Shown here piece after piece: positions 68 through 11,253 of a stretch of DNA of 11,714 bases (position 1 is its first letter; every line of letters begins with the position of its first letter). Source of the stretch: Chromatiales bacterium. Its GTDB lineage: Bacteria; Pseudomonadota; Gammaproteobacteria; Thiohalomonadales; Thiohalomonadaceae. The notes beneath the pieces were generated by a model. It was not told where the DNA came from. It did not search any database and saw only the letters and a program-made list of their open reading frames with translations. The position numbers were made by a program, and so were the translations under genes. The stretch is taken from contig JAOUQQ010000081.1 of the NCBI GenBank assembly GCA_029879245.1, positions 1 to 11,714 on the forward strand, written 5' to 3'.

Positions 68-1126
<1,059 letters not shown>

Positions 1127-1220: not shown

Positions 1221-1832
1221 CTACTTTTGCACCGCCTGCTTCAACGCGGCGCGGATGATCGCCTCACTCCCCATCCCGTCGGTATCGAGGATACTGATCA
1301 GGCGGCTCGCCTCAGGCGGTTTGTAGCCGAGGGAGATCAGGGCACTGAGCGCATCCTTCACCGCATCGGCGGATGAGGCGATCTGAGATGTCGCAATCCC
1401 GCTGGCCGGTAATACCGGCGACGGTTGCCAGTCATCAAGACGGTCACGCATCTCGACGATCAGCCGCTCTGCGGTCTTCTTGCCGACACCGGGCAGGCGC
1501 ACCAGGGTGGCGGTATCACTGTCGTGCACGCAGCGGGCAAACTCATCGGCCGAGATCCCGGAGAGGATGGTGAGCGCCAGTTTGGCCCCCACACCATTGA
1601 CCTTAATCAGGGTACGAAACAGGGTACGTTCCGCCTCGGTGGCAAAGGCGAAGAGCAGGTGGGCGTCCTCACGCACCACCAAATGGGTGTGCAGGGTCAC
1701 CTCAGTCCCCACCTCGGGGAGCTGAAAGATGGTGCCCATCGGCGCCTCCAGCTCATAGCCGATCCCCCCCACATCGAGCAGCAGGTGGGGAGGCCTCTTC
1801 TCCGCAAGTATGCCGCGCAGGCGACCTATCAT
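1221..1832 (-). CDS. ruvA: Holliday junction DNA helicase subunit RuvA
   Basis: 203 aa. N-terminal OB domain (MIGRLRGIL...), two HhH motifs ([14 protein letters not shown] / [16 protein letters not shown]), C-terminal RuvB-interaction domain. The start overlaps the ruvC stop in ATGA fashion. Confidence 0.93.
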
Positions 1833-2347
1833 CGATAACGTCCTCTTCTACTGCCGCGCACCCCTTCGAGGTGGCGCAGGGTTTGACTGGTATGATTGTG
1901 GCACAGTGCCACAGCAAGGGCATCAGCGGCATCGGCCTGCGGCATCCCCGGCAGCTTGAGCAGCGCCTGCACCATGTGCTGCACCTGCTCCTTGCTGGCG
2001 TTACCCTTACCCACCGTCGCCTTCTTGATCTCGCTGGGGGTGTATTCGCTGAGCGTCAGCTCGCGTGACATCACCGCGCAGATGGCGGCGCCGCGGGCCT
2101 GCCCCAGCTTGAGGGCGGAGTCGGGATTGCGATGCATGAAGACCTGCTCAATCGCCACCTCATCAGGGGCATAGAGCTCGATGATGTCGCTCACCCCATC
2201 GAAGATGGTCTTGAGGCGCGAGGCAAACTCACCATCCCCGGCACGGATGCAACCGCTCTCTACGTAATGGAGACGCCCATTTGCCCGTTCGATAATCCCG
2301 AAGCCGGTAATACGCGAACCGGGGTCAATGCCGAGGATACGGGTCAT
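1829..2347 (-). CDS. ruvC: Crossover junction endodeoxyribonuclease RuvC
   Basis: 172 aa. N-terminal [17 protein letters not shown] with the catalytic Asp. RNase-H-like fold motifs (E in AIEQVF, D in [13 protein letters not shown]). 4-nt overlap with ruvA. Confidence 0.93.
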
Positions 2348-2363: not shown

Positions 2364-3098
2364 TTAACCGAGCTGGGCCATCACCTCTTCACTGAAGTCG
2401 GCGTTGGTATAGACGTTCTGTACATCGTCGAGCTCCTCCAGCATGTCGACCAGACGCATCACCTTCTGTGCATCCTCCAGCTCAAGCTCGACGCTGGTAG
2501 AGGGGCGTTGCGTGATCTCGCCCACCTGCGGGTCAAAACCGGCGGCAACCATCGCCTCCTTCACATGGGTGAACGCCTCCCACGCGGTGGTCACCTCGAT
2601 GGAGCCGTCATCGTTGTTCACCACATCCTCGGCCCCCGCCTCCATGATCGCCTCCTCATCGACGCCGGGTGGATAGTGCATCATGCCGATCCGGGTAAAG
2701 AGGTAGGCAACCGAACCGTCGGTACCCAGATTGCCGCCACACTTGGTGAAGGCGTGGCGTACATCGGAGACAGTACGATTACGGTTATCGGAGAGGCAGT
2801 CGACCATCACCGCCACACCGTTGGGGCCGTAGCCCTCATAGCGGATCTCGTCATAGTTATCATTATTGTCGGCACCGGCGCCACGCTTGATAGCGTTCTC
2901 AACGGTATCCTTCTTCATGTTCTGGCCCAGCGCCTTAGCCACCGCATCGCGCAGACGCGGGTTGCTGTCGATATCCGCCCCGCCCATCCTGGCGGCAACA
3001 ACGATCTCGCGGATCAGTTTGGTAAAGATCTTGCCACGCCTGGCATCCTGGGCCGCCTTACGATGCTTGATATTGGCCCATTTACTGTGACCGGCCAT
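2364..3098 (-). CDS. yebC: YebC/PmpR family DNA-binding transcriptional regulator
   Basis: 244 aa. Hallmark N-terminus [28 protein letters not shown] and conserved central/C-terminal blocks of the YebC (DUF28) family. Conserved position upstream of ruvC. Confidence 0.92.
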
Positions 3099-3130: not shown

Positions 3131-3150
3131 GTCCGCATTGTAGCACCAAT
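3131..3150 (-). promoter_or_regulatory. Candidate extended -10 promoter (TGcTACAAT on minus strand) for the yebC-ruvCAB operon
   Basis: Reverse complement of 3137-3145 reads TGCTACAAT, a TG-extended -10 hexamer with one mismatch to TATAAT, about 40 nt upstream of the yebC ATG. There is no convincing -35. By-eye call only. Confidence 0.25.
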
Positions 3151-3172: not shown

Positions 3173-3529
3173 TTAGTCTCCTCCATCGAGGGAGACGGCC
3201 GTGCGGTCAAAGGGGGAGCCACCCGGTTCATCAAACAGCAGCTCATGGCTGCCGATGCGAATCATGTCGCCTGCAATCAGGCGTTTTTTGCTCACCTTTT
3301 CGCCATTGATGAAGAGGCCATTGGTGCTGTTGAAATCGGCGATCGTCACCTCGAATGCCCCATCCAGATAGTTGTCGGGTTTTACCACAATCACCGCATG
3401 GATACCGCTAATGGTGGGGTCATCGAGTTGAATGTCGTTATCGGAGCGGCGGCCGATGGTCACCCGCTCCTTCAGCAGCTCATACTCCTTAAGTGCCAGG
3501 CCATTCAGCATCAGGGTCAGTTTGGACAT
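3173..3529 (-). CDS. FHA domain-containing protein (single FHA, 118 aa)
   Basis: Canonical FHA signature. GR in VTIGRRSDNDIQL, SGIHAVI (S..H), STNGLFINGEKV, and a C-terminal GDMIRIG block. GAGG-N9-ATG ribosome-binding site. Paralogue of the upstream FHA gene. Confidence 0.85.
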   Translation of the reverse strand: MSKLTLMLNGLALKEYELLKERVTIGRRSDNDIQLDDPTISGIHAVIVVKPDNYLDGAFEVTIADFNSTNGLFINGEKVSKKRLIAGDMIRIGSHELLFDEPGGSPFDRTAVSLDGGD

Positions 3530-3542
3530 ACGCAGATTCCTC

Positions 3543-4163
3543 CTACAGACTCTCTATGAAGCCAAGACGAGCATCAGCAATGGCGATCTCATCACCATTT
3601 TTCAACACCACAGAGCCGGACTTGACCGCCTTGCCATTCACGCTGGTAGTGATCGGTTTGTCGCCTGTGGTGATCGGCAGCAACTCATACCCCTTTGCCG
3701 TCTTCATCACCACCGCCACCTGCATCCCCGGTTTGCCCAGGGCGGTACGCTCCTTCTCCAGTTTCATCACCTCACCGGCGCGCGGACCATTGAGGATCTT
3801 CAGGGCCGAGTTGCCACTCGCCTTCTTTTTGCTATCCGTATCACCGAACATAATCATGGTGGCGGCAAAGTCCTGCACATCCTCATCGACATAACAGAGC
3901 TCATGGCTGCCGATCTTGATCACATCGTTGTGTTTCAGCGGTGACTTGGAGATGGGGTGGTTGTTAAGACGGGTGCCATTGGTACTCCCCAGATCGGTGA
4001 TCGTCGGCTTGGGCTTGAGCAGGATCGCCGCGTGCTCCCCACTGACAATCGGCTCGTTGAGCATGATGTCATTACCTGTATTGCGCCCTATCGTGACGCG
4101 CTCACCCTGCAGCGGAAAGTCGCGTACATTCATACCGTTGTGGCTAATTACCAGCTTTGCCAT
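3543..4163 (-). CDS. Two-domain FHA protein: N-terminal canonical FHA plus C-terminal degenerate FHA-like domain
   Basis: N-terminal FHA: VTIGRNTGNDIML, SGEHAAIL, GSTNGTRLNNHPI, DVIKIGSHEL. C-terminal ~90 aa shows an FHA-like beta-sandwich pattern (LGKPG...VAVV...TSVNGKAV...LKNGDEIAIA) but lacks the conserved Arg/Ser/Asn phosphothreonine-binding residues. The ORF track starts at TTG 4169. The ATG at 4163 has a better GAGG-N9 ribosome-binding site. Confidence 0.85.
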   Translation of the reverse strand: MAKLVISHNGMNVRDFPLQGERVTIGRNTGNDIMLNEPIVSGEHAAILLKPKPTITDLGSTNGTRLNNHPISKSPLKHNDVIKIGSHELCYVDEDVQDFAATMIMFGDTDSKKKASGNSALKILNGPRAGEVMKLEKERTALGKPGMQVAVVMKTAKGYELLPITTGDKPITTSVNGKAVKSGSVVLKNGDEIAIADARLGFIESL

Positions 4164-4176
4164 CGTCAATACCTCA

Positions 4177-4884
4177 CTACCAGATTCGAACCACGATTAC
4201 CGAAATATTATCATCGCCGCCACGCTCATTGGCGGCATCCACCAGCGCACGCACCACCTCGGGCAGGGCATCGCCTGCCAGCAGGGTGGCAATCTCCTCA
4301 TCCATAAGATAGTTGCTCAGACCATCGGAACAGAGCAGGTAACAGTCATCGTCGACCACCGCTTCGTCACCCAGATCCACCGCCACCCCGGAGTCAAGCC
4401 CCAGTGCACGGGTGATCACATTCTTCTGCGGGGAGTTGCGCGCCTGCTCGGCCTCCAGCATCCCCTCATCCACCAGCTCCTGCACCAACGAGTGGTCACG
4501 GGTCAGCTGCGTCAACTCACCATCTCTTAAGCGGTAGAGGCGGGAGTCGCCCACATGGGCGTAGTGTAATCGCCCCTCCTCCAGCGCCAGCGCTACCACC
4601 GTGGTCCCCATGGTGTGGATCTCAGGGTCAGAAGTGGCGTGCGCATAGATCTGCAGGTTGGCCTGCTCTATCGCCCGCTGCAGCATCTGCGATGCACGGC
4701 TCTGACGTAACATCTCACCTATCGTCTCCACCGCAATGGCACTGGCCACCTCGCCGGCGTGGTGGCCACCCATACCATCTGCAACCACCGCCCACCCCTG
4801 CTCGGCATTCCAGGCGATGGCATCTTCATTGTGCTCACGCACCCGCCCCGTATCAGTCAATCCCACCATCTTCCATGCGGACAT
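4177..4884 (-). CDS. PP2C-family Ser/Thr protein phosphatase (Stp/PppA-like)
   Basis: 235 aa. PP2C motifs: DTGRVREHNED, VADGMGGHHAGEVAS, HTMGTT, CSDGL, and C-terminal GGDDNISVIVV. The start lies 3 nt after the kinase stop, so the two are translationally coupled. Confidence 0.9.
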   Translation of the reverse strand: MSAWKMVGLTDTGRVREHNEDAIAWNAEQGWAVVADGMGGHHAGEVASAIAVETIGEMLRQSRASQMLQRAIEQANLQIYAHATSDPEIHTMGTTVVALALEEGRLHYAHVGDSRLYRLRDGELTQLTRDHSLVQELVDEGMLEAEQARNSPQKNVITRALGLDSGVAVDLGDEAVVDDDCYLLCSDGLSNYLMDEEIATLLAGDALPEVVRALVDAANERGGDDNISVIVVRIW

Positions 4885-4887
4885 CGG

Positions 4888-7113
4888 CTATCCCCCCCGG
4901 CACCGTTTAAGGGCTGTCGCTACCTCCCCTGCACTCTGGTAGCGTTTGCCCGGCTCTTTTTGCAGACATTTATTGATGATTCGTGTGAGACAGATCGGGA
5001 TCCCCTTGCGGAAATTACCCGGTTTAGGATGGGCCTGATTGGTGATCTTGAACATCAGGCTACCCAGCGATTCTGCCTCAAACGGCAGGTGACCGGTGGC
5101 AAGTTGAAACAGGGTCACCCCGAGCGAGAAAATATCGGCCCGCCCATCCACCTTCTTCCCCGCCACCTGCTCCGGCGACATATAGGATGGGCTACCAAGA
5201 ACGGTACCGGTCTTGGTCTTACTGGCATCGGTCAGACAGGCAACACCGAAATCGGTCACCTTCACCACCTTCTCGTTACGCTCGTAGACGATATTGGCCG
5301 GTTTGATATCGCGGTGCACCACCTTCTGCTTGTGGGCGTAGTCGAGCGCCTCGGCCACCTCTTCCATAATCGCCATCACCTCCTTGAGCGGCAGCAGACT
5401 CTTTTTGCTGGAGAAGGCGGCCAAGTCCTGTCCCTTCAGGTAATCCATCGCGATGTAGGCAAGCTCCTGCTCCTCACCCACGTCGTAAATCGTCACAATA
5501 TTACGGTGGTTAAGACGCCCGGCGGTCTCTGCCTCTCGATAGAAGCGCTGCTTGACCTCCTTGAGCTCCTGCCCTTCAAACTCGTGAGCGAGGGCCATTG
5601 TTTTGATCGCCACCTCACGATTGATTCGCGGGTCCTGCCCCAGATAGACCATCCCCATGGCACCACGGCCGATCTCTTTCTCGATATGGTAGTGTCCCAG
5701 AGTTGGGCGCTGCACCCCCGTGGTCGCCTCCATCACCACGGTACCACCAGGTGCCGCACTGGACTGGGGCAGCACGATACGCTCACCCATCTCACGGTTG
5801 CGCGCCAGACGCTCACCTACATCCTTGAAGTTTCGTGCCAGACGCTGTAACTCGCCAAACAGTGCCACTGCCTTGTTGTACTGACGTTTGCGCTCAAAAT
5901 CGAGCCCCAGGTTATAGAGCTGCTCACGCAGGGTTTCACTATTAACACAGCGGCGATACTTCTCCCACGCTTGCTCCAGCTCTCCCTGCGACTGCAGCAT
6001 ACGCCCCAGTTGCGTGTTGGAGGTAGAGAGCTCCTCCACCAGTCGAGCCTCACGCAGGGAGCCCCGACGTTGCAACGTTATCAGCAGGTAACCACCCAGC
6101 AGTAGCAGGGTGGGGGCAATCAGCGGTAGCCACTGCGAAAGCAGTAACAGAAAGAGCATCTCGCTATTGAGCAAAAGAAACAGCAGCAGCAGTGAGGAGA
6201 GCAGACCCGAGGTAAGTCCAAGTCGCGGCAGCAACAGCATCAGGAACAACGCCACCGCCAGCCATGCACCGTACTGTAACCACACCGTGAGTGAGTGGAA
6301 TCCCACCTGTCGCCCGTTGAGCAGCGCGTCCAGCGCCACCGCGTGGGCCGTTACTTGCACCGCATCACCGATGATCACCCGTTTACCACGCAGAGATTTG
6401 ATAGAGACCTTATCTGCGATCACCTCGCGAAGGTCGTAACGCTGGATCCCCTCTCCATCCCCCAGATAGGTCATGGGGTGATAGACATAGGCCGGATTGT
6501 CACCACTTAAATTCTGCTGTTTGCGGGGCAGCAACTGGTAGAGGAGCGAGGAGTGCCTGCCCTCCTCCTGCCACACCGCAGCGGGGACACCGAGTGGTCG
6601 TTCTCCCCTGAGCACCACCCCGCTCCCCCTCGCCTGCGCCAACAGTCCGGCGGGGGGCAGTGAGATATCCTCGATCAACCGACGTCGCGGCTGTGCCTGA
6701 GAGCGCAGATAGGTGCTAAGTGACTGCTCACCCTCCTCTCTTACCCCTTCTCTAGCCGTCACATAGGAGGTAAGCCAGACATTATCGGCCCGCTTGATCG
6801 CCGTCGCCAGTGCGGCACTCTCATCATAGAGCGGCAGCATGAGGGCCACCGCTCGGGCTCCCTTTAACTTCTCCACCACCTGTGACAGCTCATCCTGTGA
6901 GACACGCTTGCCGCTATCGATAACAATCACCTGATCGCTACGCTCACTGGCACCGACATACTTCAGCAGGGTCTCGTAGAAACCCTCCTCAAGGTGATCC
7001 AGCAGTGGTGTTTGAAGCAGCCCCAGCACGGTCAGGGAGAGCAGCAACCCCGCCAGCCATGAGCCACCTCTACGCAGTTTTAGTCGTCGATGCGTTGTTC
7101 GCTTCAGTTTCAT
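4888..7113 (-). CDS. Transmembrane sensor Ser/Thr protein kinase: N-terminal TM, CHASE2-like periplasmic domain, 3 TM helices, coiled-coil/TPR-like linker, C-terminal Hanks kinase
   Basis: 741 aa. N-terminal TM helix after a K/R-rich N-terminus. About 270 aa extracytoplasmic region with CHASE2-like blocks (QVIVIDSG...ALMLPLYDE; KRVIIGDAVQVTAHAVALDALLNG). Three Leu-rich TM helices. Kinase motifs: GRGAMGMVY, VAIK, HRDIKPANIV, DFG, SPSYMSPE, and activation-loop threonines TKTGT. Confidence 0.88.
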   Translation of the reverse strand: MKLKRTTHRRLKLRRGGSWLAGLLLSLTVLGLLQTPLLDHLEEGFYETLLKYVGASERSDQVIVIDSGKRVSQDELSQVVEKLKGARAVALMLPLYDESAALATAIKRADNVWLTSYVTAREGVREEGEQSLSTYLRSQAQPRRRLIEDISLPPAGLLAQARGSGVVLRGERPLGVPAAVWQEEGRHSSLLYQLLPRKQQNLSGDNPAYVYHPMTYLGDGEGIQRYDLREVIADKVSIKSLRGKRVIIGDAVQVTAHAVALDALLNGRQVGFHSLTVWLQYGAWLAVALFLMLLLPRLGLTSGLLSSLLLLFLLLNSEMLFLLLLSQWLPLIAPTLLLLGGYLLITLQRRGSLREARLVEELSTSNTQLGRMLQSQGELEQAWEKYRRCVNSETLREQLYNLGLDFERKRQYNKAVALFGELQRLARNFKDVGERLARNREMGERIVLPQSSAAPGGTVVMEATTGVQRPTLGHYHIEKEIGRGAMGMVYLGQDPRINREVAIKTMALAHEFEGQELKEVKQRFYREAETAGRLNHRNIVTIYDVGEEQELAYIAMDYLKGQDLAAFSSKKSLLPLKEVMAIMEEVAEALDYAHKQKVVHRDIKPANIVYERNEKVVKVTDFGVACLTDASKTKTGTVLGSPSYMSPEQVAGKKVDGRADIFSLGVTLFQLATGHLPFEAESLGSLMFKITNQAHPKPGNFRKGIPICLTRIINKCLQKEPGKRYQSAGEVATALKRCRGG

Positions 7114-7225
7114 TGAGTTAACGCGGGTATTTCACCGTTATTGTTATGATGCCGTCTCGCCGGAAGGGCACTTCTGATCCCGTAAGAGTGTGCCAAACCT
7201 TTATCCCGAAAACAGGAACTGGGTC

Positions 7226-7245
7226 TACTATTGCCAATTACAGTA
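7226..7245. promoter_or_regulatory. LexA (SOS) box-like imperfect palindrome TACTATTGCCAATTACAGTA
   Basis: Matches the gammaproteobacterial consensus TACTGT-N8-ACAGTA at 19 of 20 defined positions. The single mismatch is in the left CTGT core (CTAT). Overlaps the HIT gene stop codon and lies about 113 nt upstream of the kinase operon start codon. Confidence 0.25.
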
Positions 7246-7636
7246 GTCGACCTATGCGCTGGCGTAGAAACGTCACCTGATCATCATCATAGGGTCTGCC
7301 CTCTCCCACACCCCAGACAGGACCTGGCCACGTCTCATCCCCCTTGAAGCGGACAATATGGTGCAGATGCAGCTGCGGCACAAGATTGCCCAGGACGCCG
7401 ATGTTGAGTTTGTCGCCACTAAACTCCTCCATCATCCACCGGCCCAGTTGGGAAGATTCACGCAACAGCTGTTGCTGCTCCCCCTCCTCCAGCTGAAAGA
7501 TCTCCGTGATCCCCTCACGGCGAGGTACCAGCACAAACCAGGGGTAGCGCGCATCGTTGAGCAGCAGTAGAAGCGACAGGGAAAGCTCCCCCATCACAAT
7601 GGTATCGCGCTCAAGCTGTGGATGGAGGGTGAACAC
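7238..7636 (-). CDS. HIT-like family protein (Pseudomonas-type short HIT homologue)
   Basis: 132 aa. Conserved blocks LLLLNDARYPWFVLVPRR and GNLVPQLHLHHIVRF (histidine-triad-like) followed by PGPVWG. GTG start immediately abutting the stop codon of the upstream SPFH gene (tagGTG). Confidence 0.72.
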   Translation of the reverse strand: MFTLHPQLERDTIVMGELSLSLLLLLNDARYPWFVLVPRREGITEIFQLEEGEQQQLLRESSQLGRWMMEEFSGDKLNIGVLGNLVPQLHLHHIVRFKGDETWPGPVWGVGEGRPYDDDQVTFLRQRIGRLL

Positions 7637-9301
7637 CTACCTCTTTTTCCCCGTCTCCTGCTGTGCCCACTTGACGATATTGGAGGCCCCCAGCACCGCG
7701 GCGGCCCCCTCCAGGCTGGTTCCCGCCCCCTGTACATTGACGGTGGGTACCTTGACGATCTCCGGATTGGCCTGGGCGGCGGCCAGAATCTCTTTGAGCA
7801 TTGCCAGCTCCTTGGCCGCATCCTTGCCCAGCACGTTGGCACGAGCCGACTCACCTTTGGCGATTTCCATCAGCTTCAGTTTCTCCGCCTCACCGAGGAG
7901 CTTGCCCTCCTCCTTGCGTTTCTCCGCCACCTGCACGTCGATATTGGCGGCCATCAGGCGCCCCTGCTCCTGAGCCTCGGAACGGGCCTTCTCCACCTCG
8001 ATGCGCTTCACCTGCGCCTCCTTCTCCCGGCCGTAGGTCTCCTGCAACTGCAGCGCCAACTGCTCGCGCTGGCGGGCCACCAGAAGTTCGGGCGGGATCA
8101 CCGGGTCGCCGAAGCGGATCTCCTTGAGGGTGACCCCCGCCTTGAACAGCTCGGGGGCAAGGGCCTCCTCCGTCTTCTTCTCCAGCATTGCCCGCTGGTT
8201 AATGAGCTCCAGCACCTTGGTGGTCTTCTCACCAGTGATGTTGCGCACCACCGAGCGAACACCCGGTGTGGCGATCTTATCCTCCACCGCCTGCAACTCG
8301 CCTACCGAGGCGACCACCCGCGGGGCGTCCCTGGGATTGACCTGCACCAGCATGCGCATCTCCAGCGGCACCCTCCACCCCTCGACGGTCGCCATGATCG
8401 CCTTATCGGCGGCATTCTCCGGCATCGGCACCTCCACCGTGGTCGCCTGCTGGTTGATCTTTCCGTCCTCGTTCACCGTCAGGTCGATGCGCCGGGTGGT
8501 GTAGCCGCCACGATAGCTCCAGGTCTGCACCGTAGTCGGCAGGATGGTAGCCTGATAGGCGCGCGGGTTGAGAAAGTAGCGACCGGGCATCAGCGGTTCG
8601 TCCCACACCCCGATACACCCCTTGGAGACGATGGGAGATGCGAGCATGCTGTTGGGGTCGCTGTCCGGGATCTCGGTGGGGCACCCCTCCACCTCACCAA
8701 CGTTACTCTTGATGACCGCCACATGACCCGCCTTCACCTCCAGCGACGGCACTATCTGGTGCTTGAACAGGTACTGATTGAAGCGCCACAGCCCCGGCGG
8801 CAGTACGGTCAGCTGTACCCCCTTCTGCCCCCCCTGAGTGAGGAAGGTGTTGGCATCGAGCATGTTGTTGATCTGATCCTGCCCCCAGCCGCGAGCGATG
8901 TACTGCCCCTCCTTGAGCGGCTCACCGTCGGTGGCGGTGATGATCCCCATACTCCCCTCCGGCACCGCCACCACGTTCAGCTCCTCAATGTCGTAGAGCA
9001 CTCGGATGAAGGGGACAAAGTGAAAGCCGGGACCCAGAATATCGGCCTGCGGCCCCTTCTGGCTGCCGACCGCAATAATGTGACCGGGGGGTAGCGAATC
9101 TGCCAGATAGATCCGCTTCATGTGGCCCACCTTGTCCTGATCAACAATGTAGAACGAGGTACTGGCAAACTGGAACAGTGCCATCACCATCAGTCCCAGT
9201 GAGACCAGTCTGGCCAGGGTCGGTGAAAGGGTTGCCGGGCGGCGCACCTGCAGAAAGAAGGCGGCGGCGATAAAGGCGACAAACAGCGTTAGCTGGATCA
9301 T
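7637..9301 (-). CDS. SPFH/band-7 (flotillin-like) membrane protein with long C-terminal coiled coil
   Basis: 554 aa. Two N-terminal hydrophobic segments. SPFH-like core (FYIVDQDKVGH...GPGFHFVPFIRV). C-terminal EA/KE-rich coiled coil (ARQREQLALQLQETYGREKEAQVKRIEVEKARSEAQEQ...). Strong GGAGGG ribosome-binding site. The core carries large insertions relative to canonical stomatin/HflKC. Confidence 0.7.
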   Translation of the reverse strand: MIQLTLFVAFIAAAFFLQVRRPATLSPTLARLVSLGLMVMALFQFASTSFYIVDQDKVGHMKRIYLADSLPPGHIIAVGSQKGPQADILGPGFHFVPFIRVLYDIEELNVVAVPEGSMGIITATDGEPLKEGQYIARGWGQDQINNMLDANTFLTQGGQKGVQLTVLPPGLWRFNQYLFKHQIVPSLEVKAGHVAVIKSNVGEVEGCPTEIPDSDPNSMLASPIVSKGCIGVWDEPLMPGRYFLNPRAYQATILPTTVQTWSYRGGYTTRRIDLTVNEDGKINQQATTVEVPMPENAADKAIMATVEGWRVPLEMRMLVQVNPRDAPRVVASVGELQAVEDKIATPGVRSVVRNITGEKTTKVLELINQRAMLEKKTEEALAPELFKAGVTLKEIRFGDPVIPPELLVARQREQLALQLQETYGREKEAQVKRIEVEKARSEAQEQGRLMAANIDVQVAEKRKEEGKLLGEAEKLKLMEIAKGESARANVLGKDAAKELAMLKEILAAAQANPEIVKVPTVNVQGAGTSLEGAAAVLGASNIVKWAQQETGKKR

Positions 9302-9686: not shown

Positions 9687-10175
9687 GTGCGTCGAATCAA
9701 CCGTCTGCTGTTGTTACTACTGCTGTTTGGAGCAATCTTCCCCTTCACCTTTCCGTGGAAGGAGGGTAGGCCGATGCTCGACTGGCGTGAGCTCTCCCTC
9801 CCCGAGGTGGCACCGATAGAGCTACCCGAGTTCAATCTACCCCCGGGTGAATCAGCGGAGCGTCAGCCGCACCAGCCGATCACCCTCTATCGCTGGCTCG
9901 ATAACAGCGGCGGCGTACAATTTGGCACTACCCCGCCCACCGATGGCATCCCATATGAGACGCTGGAGGTTCACCCCGACGCCAACCTGATACAGCCACC
10001 CGTAGCCACATCACTGCCACAACAGTCGCAGAGAAGAGAGAGCTCTCCCTCCCCATCACTCACCTCGCCCCTGAGCACCTCGCCACAGGAGGCGATGCAG
10101 ATCATGCAAGATGCCCGTGAGATCCGCGAAATGTCACAGGAGCGGTTACGCCAGCACGAGGCGCTGACGCAGTAA
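9687..10175 (+). CDS. Secreted DUF4124-like protein with Ser/Pro-rich and charged C-terminal tail
   Basis: 162 aa. Signal-peptide-like N-terminus (RLLLLLLLFGAIFPF). DUF4124-like motif ITLYRWLDNSGGVQFGTTPP. Low-complexity SPSPSLTSPLSTSP then a helical charged tail. GTG start with AAGGA Shine-Dalgarno at -7. Confidence 0.6.
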   Translation: MRRINRLLLLLLLFGAIFPFTFPWKEGRPMLDWRELSLPEVAPIELPEFNLPPGESAERQPHQPITLYRWLDNSGGVQFGTTPPTDGIPYETLEVHPDANLIQPPVATSLPQQSQRRESSPSPSLTSPLSTSPQEAMQIMQDAREIREMSQERLRQHEALTQ

Positions 10176-10180
10176 ATTGA

Positions 10181-10474
10181 TCACTCTTTATCGCGTGCCT
10201 TACCGATGGTGTGTAACGGCACCACCACATCGCCCTGAGGCCTGGGCTCATCCTTGAAGCGCGGACGGTTGTCCATACTACGCCCCGCCTCTTCGGCCAA
10301 CTCCTGCTCACGCTGGGTGATCAGGATAAGACAGTCACGCAGGCCGTTAATGGTGTTGTCTGAGAGCGGGTGCTTCACCCCCGGCTGGGTAGCGGTATCC
10401 TTGATCACCTCGGTCAATACGCGCTTTACCGCGCTCAAAATGCGCTCTTCTTTCGATAAATTCTGCTCACTCAT
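10181..10474 (-). CDS. Conserved hypothetical protein (97 aa from ATG; family not recognised)
   Basis: High-GC3 codon usage, GGAGAG-N7-ATG ribosome-binding site at 10474. The ORF track extends to a GTG at 10543 with no Shine-Dalgarno sequence. Sequence MSEQNLSKEERILSAVKRVLTEVIKD...; I do not recognise a motif. Confidence 0.5.
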   Translation of the reverse strand: MSEQNLSKEERILSAVKRVLTEVIKDTATQPGVKHPLSDNTINGLRDCLILITQREQELAEEAGRSMDNRPRFKDEPRPQGDVVVPLHTIGKARDKE

Positions 10475-10611
10475 ATAGATTCTCTCCGGGGAAAATAGCG
10501 GCTGGGTCGTGTCGAACCAGTCTACAACACTCTCTAAGGCCACCCAAACGGTGCAAAGCGGCTATACTGGTGCCTCCATCGCAACAATGCAACGAGAAGA
10601 GCACCCGATTC

Positions 10612-11253
10612 ATGACCGCCCCCCACGCCCTGCTCTATACCGCCCCCGGCTGCCCCCACTGCCCCGGCATCAAGGCCGCACTGCACAAGTTACAGCAGGA
10701 GGGGGTAATTGGAACGCTGGAGAGCCACGACATCACCCAGCAGCCGCAACAGGCCGCGACACTGGGTATACGCAGTGTGCCGTGGCTGAGGCTGGGGGAG
10801 TTCATCCTCACCGGTGCCCAGACCCCGCAGCAGCTACGCCACTGGGCCGAACTGGCCAGCCATCCCGAAGGTATGAGTGGCTATCTGGCGCATCTACTCA
10901 GGGAGGGTGACCTGGCCGAGGTAGAGAGGATGCTCATCACCCAGCCGCACCACCTCGGTGCCCTGTTACCACTACTTGAAGAGCCCTCAAGCCCGATCCA
11001 GGTTCGCCTTGGGGTCAGCGCCATTCTGGAGCAGTTCGAGGCCCAACCGCCGCTGCAGCAACTGGTGCCGCAACTGATCACCCTTAGCGAATCGACTGAT
11101 CACCGCCTGCGTAGCGACGCCTGCCATCTCCTTGGCCTCACCCACGCCCCAGCCGCACTGGACGCCCTGCAGCGCTGTAGCCAGGATGAGCACGCCGAGG
11201 TGAGGGAAATTGCCACCGAGGCATTGGAATTACTCCAATCTAACCCTAAATAG
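10612..11253 (+). CDS. Glutaredoxin/thioredoxin-like CxxC domain fused to HEAT/PBS-lyase-like repeat domain
   Basis: N-terminal LLYTAPGCPHCPGIKAAL with the downstream cis-Pro motif RSVPWL, typical of a Grx-like fold. The C-terminal half has repeated helical hairpins (HRLRSDACHLLGLTHAPAALDALQRCSQDEHAEVREIATEALELL) resembling HEAT repeats. I prefer the ATG at 10612 over the track GTG at 10570, which lacks a Shine-Dalgarno sequence. Confidence 0.68.
   Translation: MTAPHALLYTAPGCPHCPGIKAALHKLQQEGVIGTLESHDITQQPQQAATLGIRSVPWLRLGEFILTGAQTPQQLRHWAELASHPEGMSGYLAHLLREGDLAEVERMLITQPHHLGALLPLLEEPSSPIQVRLGVSAILEQFEAQPPLQQLVPQLITLSESTDHRLRSDACHLLGLTHAPAALDALQRCSQDEHAEVREIATEALELLQSNPK

Follow-up and report, generated by a model that had tools for sequence, protein, structure and literature searches.

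In Gram-negative bacteria, the PpkA/PppA/Fha1-TagH pathway of type VI secretion systems (T6SS) associates a membrane Hanks-type Ser/Thr kinase with a co-encoded PP2C phosphatase and an FHA reader, and the binding of the FHA domain to phospho-threonine is its expected read-out. The actinobacterial PknB/PstP/FhaA/FhaB (FipA) module gathers a kinase, a PP2C phosphatase and two FHA proteins in a tight cluster, its phosphatase PstP belonging to the Stp1/IreP family. GarA and OdhI, FHA proteins of small size, have a disordered segment with a conserved threonine, which could be bound by the FHA domain of the same protein after phosphorylation. In Rad53 and Chk2, an FHA domain and a Ser/Thr kinase act jointly; these proteins are soluble nuclear FHA-kinase fusions activated by ATM/ATR-type kinases. 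Finally, cyanobacterial Ser/Thr kinases have been described in which an N-terminal CHASE2 domain is followed by the Hanks kinase, CHASE2 being one of the few accessory domains found N-terminal to the kinase (PMC2176072). This report concerns a cassette of four genes for phospho-threonine signaling, found in a stretch of 11,714 nucleotides (nt) from a Chromatiales bacterium (contig JAOUQQ010000081.1). This whole stretch is called the window throughout; the cassette lies there upstream of yebC and of the Holliday-junction resolvasome genes ruvC, ruvA and ruvB.

Like the first two systems, the cassette combines a membrane Hanks kinase, a PP2C phosphatase and FHA proteins, and its phosphatase falls in the same Stp1/IreP family as PstP. 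One of its FHA proteins has, like GarA and OdhI, a conserved threonine in a disordered segment, and Foldseek aligns the FHA fold of the cassette with that of Rad53 and Chk2. An original prediction, made from the letters of the window, had proposed that the cassette regulates the resolution of junctions or recombinational repair. The analysis reported here, based on a listing of the open reading frames (ORFs) of the window, on Pfam and NCBIfam scans and on comparisons with related loci, leads to a different reading: the cassette is probably a self-contained, vertically inherited phospho-threonine unit that came to lie beside yebC-ruvCAB on a single occasion, in the ancestor of a gammaproteobacterial clade.

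Conservation of the cassette and of its neighborhood

The ORF listing agrees with the four closely packed minus-strand genes announced by the original prediction, in the order kinase, PP2C, FHA2 (two-domain) and FHA1 (single-domain), and with their end 74 nt before yebC (Table 1). The internal spacers measure 3, 7-13 and 13 nt. The cassette belongs to a minus-strand series that runs without a break, 5' to 3', from the SPFH and HIT genes through kinase, PP2C, FHA2 and FHA1 to yebC, ruvC, ruvA and ruvB. All the catalytic and binding motifs of the predicted writer, eraser and reader were found intact, and the four genes form one tight unit encoding a complete and apparently active set: a writer (the kinase), an eraser (the PP2C phosphatase) and readers (two canonical FHA domains). 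The yebC-ruvCAB genes located downstream are treated as adjoining genes, not as established members of the signaling module.

A wider sample was obtained by scanning one genome per GTDB species with an alignment of the kinase, which returned at least 80 loci, and the window proteins were mapped onto the listed loci in order to score the genes of the cassette. The counts that follow hold among the loci listed. The core formed by kinase, PP2C and FHA2 is present in about 40 of them, distributed among Gamma-, Beta-, Zeta- and Deltaproteobacteria, Nitrospirae, Elusimicrobiota and Terriglobia; this three-gene core is kept across phyla. About 30 of these roughly 40 core cassettes have neighbors other than yebC-ruv, and for some 30 cores from other phyla neither ruv nor yebC was found within 10 kb. 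Outside the relatives of the window, a single locus, L008, has yebC/ruv beside its cassette, which lacks FHA1.

The order seen in the window recurs on contigs that carry kinase homologs of 66, 55, 52, 49 and 41% identity and on those of two divergent FHA2 proteins. It reads (aspS-nadA-variable genes)-kinase-PP2C-FHA2-FHA1-yebC-ruvC-ruvA-ruvB-(ybgC)-tolQRAB-pal-cpoB-queE, and most yebC-linked loci preserve the synteny of the whole stretch between aspS and tol-pal. The junction between FHA1 and yebC is kept in eight four-gene lineages, to which the yebC linkage of the three-gene locus L008 can be added. The adjacency noticed in the window is thus a recurrent one. It is not general, and the check put forward with the original prediction, whether the cassette always accompanies either yebC-ruvCAB or the SPFH/HIT pair, came out negative: most listed cores have the other neighbors mentioned above and, among the related loci compared, SPFH/HIT adjoins the cassette solely in the genome of the window. 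The upstream flanks observed comprise SPFH/HIT, a DUF676 hydrolase, a Tricorn-like gene and hypothetical genes. No T6SS genes were seen in the related loci inspected, whether yebC-linked or not.

Another neighborhood, located downstream of the core, characterizes 15 listed loci, mostly from Betaproteobacteria with some Gammaproteobacteria (L013, L014, L016-L018, L020-L022, L037 and L028, the last from Acidovorax delafieldii DSM 64, are included). A CHASE2 adenylate/guanylate cyclase gene is found near the cassette in at least 13 loci, directly downstream and on the same strand in 11 of the 13, with a median gap of 77 nt. It is joined by a metallo-beta-lactamase/PDEase_II-like hydrolase (at least 15 loci) and a GAF-MshEN-T2SSE ATPase (at least 10 loci). 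This set is the most frequent recurring non-housekeeping neighborhood, and it looks like a larger conserved signaling cluster with two paralogous CHASE2 sensors. These betaproteobacterial partners (a CHASE2 cyclase, a phosphodiesterase-like hydrolase and a GAF-MshE-type ATPase) may indicate the real output of the cassette. Their frequency near the core speaks for an alternative in which the ancestral and current role is the control of cyclic-nucleotide signaling and/or of a type-IV-pilus/MshE-like ATPase, the partners being encoded elsewhere in the genome of the window. This alternative is rather unlikely, however: no cyclase, PDEase_II or MshE-like gene lies within 10 kb of the cassette in the window contig or in any yebC-linked locus, and the association could likewise be lineage-specific.

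The remaining contexts are more varied. In at least seven loci of a Steroidobacteraceae-like group (group C), the three-gene cassette lies between a divergent radA and alr-dnaB, a proximity that is likely coincidental. In L012 and L038 the cassette lies between rluC-HAD-sppA and rlmD-cysK, and in L025 between lpxC and an HD hydrolase gene. Two four-gene cassettes are found away from yebC, one near adk-hemH and an RND pump (L090), the other with HU-like genes as neighbors (L092). In the latter locus, the genes after the cassette are a 96-aa HU-like gene and one for an unusual 480-aa protein that also has a Bac_DNA_binding domain. An excess of DNA-metabolism neighbors (ruv, radA/dnaB, HU) was considered as a line of evidence and set aside: by count it concerns three of about eight distinct contexts, which is not clearly above chance.

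Evolutionary origin of the yebC linkage

A neighbor-joining tree was computed from the concatenated kinase, PP2C and FHA2 sequences of 34 loci (803 columns, 200 bootstraps). All the yebC-linked cassettes, together with L090 and L092, fall in one gammaproteobacterial clade supported by 200/200 bootstraps, and L008 branches outside the four-gene cassettes as their outgroup (199/200). Nested inside this clade are the two cassettes found away from yebC, L090 with L006 and L089 (191/200), L092 with the sub-clade of the window (199/200). Since the yebC-linked cassettes constitute a single clade, their linkage can be ascribed to one evolutionary event. The simplest history would begin with one placement beside yebC and continue by vertical inheritance; a duplication would have given rise to FHA1, and L090 and L092 would later have separated from yebC, the cassette staying intact both times. 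A DUF676-type hydrolase gene is common to the upstream regions of L008, L003 and L094.

The site of this placement can be compared with the order aspS-nudB-yebC-ruvC-...-ruvA-ruvB of E. coli, which implies that the block is old and that what fills the aspS-yebC slot varies with the lineage. The same block, without the cassette, is presumably that of Pseudomonas aeruginosa, in the order aspS-pmpR(yebC)-ruvCAB-ybgC-tolQRAB-oprL. The adjacency between the cassette and yebC-ruvCAB is best read as shared ancestry and does not by itself establish a functional coupling to the resolution of Holliday junctions. More generally, a tight same-strand adjacency within a deeply syntenic housekeeping block can mimic a functional linkage.

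Transcription signals

The positions TG-n-TA-n-n-AT of an extended -10 element are invariant in 8/8 FHA1-yebC gaps that are otherwise divergent, and they are the sole conserved feature there. The pattern TGNTAMAAT has one match in the window, TGCTACAAT, for 0.17 expected. Because this element is conserved in the gaps, yebC-ruvCAB probably has its own promoter. A consensus scan of the 74-nt gap detected no terminator-like site, the fold z-score of this gap (-0.94) corresponds to no unusual structure and no stable hairpin, and an Rfam scan of the window gave no matches. With the same strand, a short gap and no terminator, read-through from the cassette into yebC-ruvCAB is therefore possible.

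An SOS-box-like site had also been pointed out upstream of the cassette (Table 1). As a one-mismatch match it stands at the level of chance, 4.55 such matches being expected, with two or more in 185 of 200 shuffles, and it is not conserved upstream of the orthologous kinases; it was consequently rejected, and the cassette is not assigned to the LexA/SOS regulon. A search with CTGT-N8-ACAG found no LexA-type site ahead of yebC or ruvA. The eight kinase-upstream regions that were aligned have a mean identity of 38%, and this alignment contains no conserved operator apart from a motif limited to one sub-clade. This motif, TTGAAC-n2-3-GTT-n2-TGTTTTC, occurs upstream of the kinase in L003, L004, L005 and the window (7170-7215), where it reads TAGACCCAGTTCCTGTTTTC; it may represent the cassette's own promoter or operator. 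The region upstream of the kinase in the window also has a poor sigma-54-like match.

Weighing a functional link with the neighboring genes

Several points weigh against a cassette that would merely have been inherited in place. The FHA1-yebC gaps measure 74-208 nt with both genes on the same strand, and the gap of the window is free of a terminator. The upstream flank has been rearranged repeatedly while the FHA1-yebC junction remained intact in the clade, and DNA-metabolism genes are neighbors of the cassette in other contexts (radA/dnaB in group C, HU-like genes in L092). The trees used here are neighbor-joining trees on about 800 columns, the counts of contexts describe a sample, and the phosphorylation steps proposed below are all deduced from sequence.

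The synteny could accordingly be read as that of a checkpoint-like regulator of recombinational repair, junction resolution or YebC, acting by phosphorylation, by FHA recruitment or by read-through into yebC-ruvCAB. Besides the short gap without terminator and the DNA-related neighbors, this reading can invoke the persistence of the junction in eight four-gene lineages and L008, despite a kinase identity down to 41% and a reshuffled upstream flank. It can also invoke the restriction of FHA1, the neighbor of yebC, to the clade, and a Ser/Thr kinase sensing DNA damage in Deinococcus, described in a preprint. We nevertheless regard it as unlikely. A single event lies behind all the yebC-linked cassettes, two nested lineages have no yebC linkage, and some 30 of the listed cores, from other phyla, have neither ruv nor yebC within 10 kb. 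The yebC gene has a conserved putative promoter element of its own, no LexA box rises above chance, and a periplasmic CHASE2 sensor would be an odd input for DNA damage. Moreover, the conservation of the flank equals that of the whole housekeeping block and is thus not specific evidence. The repair control put forward by the original prediction thus has lineage-specific synteny as its support, and nothing specific beyond it was found. A narrower version, in which the cassette was recruited within the clade as a checkpoint-like controller of YebC and/or RuvABC, transmitting an envelope signal to Holliday-junction processing through the FHA1 adaptor with the junction kept by selection, appears very doubtful. 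If true, a link with repair would mean that a Gram-negative bacterium places recombination under a eukaryote-like phospho-threonine checkpoint, which is rare; the comparisons made here do not support such a link.

The same block raises the question of the cell envelope. The 10 kb to each side of the cassette (22 kb examined) contain neither T6SS nor type III secretion system (T3SS) genes, which agrees with the original prediction. To its remark on cell-wall genes it must be added that the cell-envelope genes tolQRAB-pal-cpoB begin about 70 nt past ruvB, just beyond the edge of the window. A cassette regulating the envelope or division, for example Tol-Pal, in analogy with the actinobacterial PknB/PstP/FhaA/FhaB, would be in keeping with the position of tolQRAB-pal-cpoB about 4 kb downstream in most yebC-linked loci. 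It would also suit the periplasmic sensor, the parallel between the kinase/PP2C/two-FHA set and the actinobacterial module, and the location of L025 beside lpxC. This possibility is nonetheless a slim one: yebC-ruvCAB, and sometimes ybgC, intervene before the envelope genes, Tol-Pal is absent near the cassettes of other lineages among the loci listed, and the proteins fail the PknB-PASTA and FhaB membership tests.

A Ser/Thr-kinase-based anti-phage defense system was considered as well, on account of the matches between the kinase domain and the PADLOC models PD-T4-6 and mad6 and the NCBIfam model MADS6. These matches involve the generic kinase domain only (152 bits for MADS6, against a cut-off of 460), the FHA proteins have no PADLOC match, and the PP2C phosphatase has a weak one (45 bits) to PDC-M21C, the model of a candidate system. 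As the locus is a stable housekeeping block with no defense island, and the cassette is vertically inherited, this explanation is extremely improbable.

Proteins of the cassette

The kinase domain occupies the C-terminal end of its protein, the Pkinase match (PF00069) covering residues 475-726. The motifs GRGAMG, HRDIKPAN and DFG, together with K504, D602, N607 and D621, are invariant in 22 aligned homologs that are 40-74% identical to the window kinase, and so are the threonines T633 and T635 of the activation loop. On these features the protein is a Hanks-type (eukaryote-like) Ser/Thr kinase. Its sensor is extracytoplasmic, as had been anticipated, and CHASE2-like. The hydropathy profile delineates a first transmembrane (TM) helix at about 19-38, then some 240 residues on the periplasmic side and, at about 275-348, a hydrophobic block that would accommodate about three TM helices, a topology that fits CHASE2 (TM1, periplasmic domain, then about three TM helices). 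The sensor of the window has no Pfam match at normal thresholds, and profile-profile comparison was required: the profile of the kinase family matches a genuine CHASE2 cyclase with an hhalign probability of 99.9% (E=2.7e-32). Relatives of the kinase carry the CHASE2 Pfam domain PF05226. The GxWPWxR motif, otherwise conserved in CHASE2, is lost in the kinase sub-clade of the window, whose own copy additionally lacks about 32-44 residues of the adjacent segment (window 6800-6990, residues ~40-105). Because of these two losses, the sensor is classed, from its profile match, as a degenerate CHASE2-type domain, a homolog that may have changed its ligand or may no longer sense any.

Between sensor and kinase domain, the juxtamembrane motif YNLGLDFERKRQ (Y400-Q411, window 5880-5915) is invariant in the 22 homologs and may constitute a docking or dimerization surface. 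Used as a family-specific search pattern with limited degeneracy allowed, it brought up further relatives, whose range extends from Gammaproteobacteria to Nitrospirae and Terriglobia. P0063, a CHASE2 kinase that stands alone with neither PP2C nor FHA, was discarded as uninformative on the cassette.

The PP2C phosphatase matches the NCBIfam Stp1/IreP model (NF033484) over its full length with 270.5 bits for a cut-off of 230, and by this score it belongs to that family. Pfam PP2C_2 (E=6.8e-19) and Pfam PP2C were also matched, and the translation shows the metal-binding motifs RxxNED, DGMGG, GDSR, SDG and DDNIS.

The true start of FHA2 is most likely the ATG at 4163, because the homologs begin with MAKLVIS. 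Its N-terminal domain matches Pfam FHA (PF00498, E=3.9e-21) at residues 25-87, with the canonical residues R27, S41, H44 and N62 invariant in the alignment of FHA2 homologs. Its best PDB matches, according to Foldseek, are the FHA domains of GarA and OdhI (TM-score ~0.9). From their conserved residues, this domain and FHA1 are classed as phospho-threonine-binding FHA domains. The description of FHA2 as a two-domain FHA protein is correct insofar as its second domain shares homology with the N-terminal one (C-terminal versus N-terminal half, hhalign 96.6%, E=5.5e-10). This second domain is degenerate, however, its Ser-x-x-His loop being deleted and GR being replaced by GK, and it lacks the phospho-threonine-binding feature; Pfam does not detect it at threshold (E=0.18). 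As a query, this pseudo-FHA domain retrieves 518 representatives of 50%-identity clusters, in which it is nearly always C-terminal in proteins of 200-250 aa. The AlphaFold2 model of FHA2 (predicted local distance difference test, pLDDT, 81) comprises two beta-sandwich domains connected by a linker that is disordered at residues 97-115 (pLDDT<50). This linker contains Thr102 in the context VQDFAxT-x-x-hydrophobic. The threonine is conserved at 90% or more in 35 homologs, and position +3 is mostly hydrophobic.

FHA1 is 44% identical to residues 1-91 of FHA2 (E=9e-27) and, judging by this alignment, is a clade-specific paralog of the N-terminal domain of FHA2. Its distribution is narrow (67 clusters), and no FHA1 match follows FHA2 in the cassettes of group B, group C, L012/L038, L025 and L008.

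Proposed mechanism

The self-contained phospho-threonine cassette favored here would work as follows. A periplasmic cue would act on the CHASE2-type domain and thereby activate the membrane kinase, which would autophosphorylate, likely at Thr633/Thr635 of the activation loop. The kinase would next phosphorylate the neighboring FHA adaptors, the best candidate site being the linker residue Thr102 of FHA2. In FHA2 and FHA1, the canonical FHA domains would then read phospho-threonines on the kinase or within FHA2, in a switch of the GarA/OdhI type, and this reading would alter the binding by the degenerate C-terminal FHA domain, the putative output surface. PP2C would reset the system, whose output is not encoded in the cassette. 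As to its location, the cassette would have landed in the variable aspS-yebC slot of the ancient block aspS...yebC-ruvCAB-ybgC-tolQRAB-pal-cpoB-queE and have been carried along since, with yebC presumably keeping its own promoter beside the inherited cassette.

The comparison thus defines a widespread uncharacterized cassette, present in several phyla, which associates a CHASE2 Hanks kinase, a PP2C phosphatase and an FHA/pseudo-FHA adaptor with a linker threonine. Thr102 provides a concrete and testable hypothesis of phospho-switch.

Features of the window and of related loci

Table 1. Positions of the features discussed in the text. Coordinates refer to the window or to the locus named in the second column.
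Feature	Sequence	Position	Strand	Basis or remark
Membrane Hanks Ser/Thr kinase	window	4888-7113	-	741 aa; Pfam Pkinase E=1.8e-56
Sensor part of the kinase, residues 1-348	window	6070-7113	-	hhalign to CHASE2 cyclase, hydropathy
Cytoplasmic juxtamembrane TPR-like region, residues 349-470	window	5704-6069	-	weak TPR_2/TPR_7 matches
Kinase catalytic domain, residues 471-741	window	4891-5703	-	
Soluble PP2C Ser/Thr phosphatase	window	4177-4884	-	235 aa; NCBIfam Stp1/IreP
FHA2, two-domain	window	ORF 3543-4169, from ATG 3543-4163	-	206 aa from ATG at 4163
Thr102 codon, FHA2 linker, candidate phospho-acceptor	window	3858-3860	-	conservation; phosphorylation predicted
Degenerate (pseudo-)FHA domain of FHA2, residues 116-206	window	3546-3818	-	hhalign
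FHA1, single-domain	window	3173-3529	-	118 aa; Pfam FHA E=2.1e-20
Extended -10 element TGCTACAAT, putative yebC promoter	window	3137-3145	-	conservation; activity predicted
yebC	window	2364-3098	-	Pfam match
ruvC	window	1829-2347	-	Pfam match
ruvA	window	1221-1832	-	Pfam match
ruvB	window	68-1126	-	Pfam match
'SOS-box-like' site CTGTAATTGGCAATAG (rejected)	window	7228-7243	.	one mismatch to CTGT-N8-ACAG; overlaps HIT stop codon
HIT-family gene	window	7238-7636	-	124-nt gap before kinase
SPFH/Band-7 protein gene	window	7637-9301	-	554 aa
Cyclase neighborhood, example gene span	L014	13312-15561		
Cyclase neighborhood, example gene span	L022	13071-13862		
Cyclase neighborhood, example gene span	L013	9555-11960		
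radA-alr/dnaB context	L032, L039, L041, L045-L048			
radA, example	L046	8488-9849		
alr, example	L041	14407-15486		
dnaB, example	L045	13736-15178		
Region with HU-like neighbors	L092	7587-9316		
Region with HU-like neighbors	L093	2833-4562		

Some additional observations concern the surroundings of the cassette. The stop codon of the SPFH gene directly abuts the start codon of the HIT gene. Further upstream, on the plus strand, a 227-aa protein (10570-11253) consists of a thioredoxin/glutaredoxin-like domain fused to HEAT repeats; its gene adjoins those of a DUF4124 protein (9687-10175) and of a 120-aa ORF (10181-10543) for which the scans gave no family match. On the resolvasome side, a 61-aa ORF is called between ruvA and ruvB in the related locus L094 (10246-10431); the corresponding gap of the window, 94 nt long, is without an ORF.

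Comparison with known systems

In the library searched, the literature contained no account of this cassette, nor of a link between a kinase and ruv. Compared with the T6SS pathway, the kinase has the opposite topology, its sensor being N-terminal and its kinase domain C-terminal, and T6SS genes are missing from the 10 kb on either side. The FHA proteins of the cassette (118 and 206 aa) fall far below the TagH model TIGR03354, with 34 and 29 bits for a cut-off of 120, and cannot be counted in that family.

The likeness to the actinobacterial divisome module, also put forward by the original prediction, holds for gene content and ends there. The cassette kinase has no PASTA domains and reaches 299 bits with the PknB model NF033483, against a cut-off of 450, the match being confined to the kinase domain (profile 7-268). 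The FhaB model NF049868 gives 61 and 45 bits for a cut-off of 125, which places the proteins outside the PknB and FhaB families. Unlike the actinobacterial module, the cassette adjoins neither rodA, pbpA nor cell-wall synthesis genes, its PP2C phosphatase is without a membrane anchor, and its sensor is of the CHASE2 type.

With GarA and OdhI, the structural likeness is confined to the FHA fold. The OdhI model NF041660 yields 54 and 40 bits for a cut-off of 200, which excludes membership, and no 2-oxoglutarate dehydrogenase link was seen for the cassette. The candidate threonine of FHA2 is C-terminal to the FHA domain, whereas that of GarA and OdhI is N-terminal (ETTS motif), and FHA2 has an extra degenerate FHA domain. 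In contrast with Rad53 and Chk2, the FHA proteins of the cassette are separate from a kinase that is transmembrane with a periplasmic sensor, and the connection with DNA damage is one of adjacency only. As to the cyanobacterial CHASE2 kinases, no association with PP2C and FHA/pseudo-FHA proteins is described for them (PMC2176072), and the CHASE2 domain of the window has lost the WPW signature. Set against all these systems, the cassette is an uncharacterized and ordinary-looking member of the bacterial Hanks-kinase/PP2C/FHA class.

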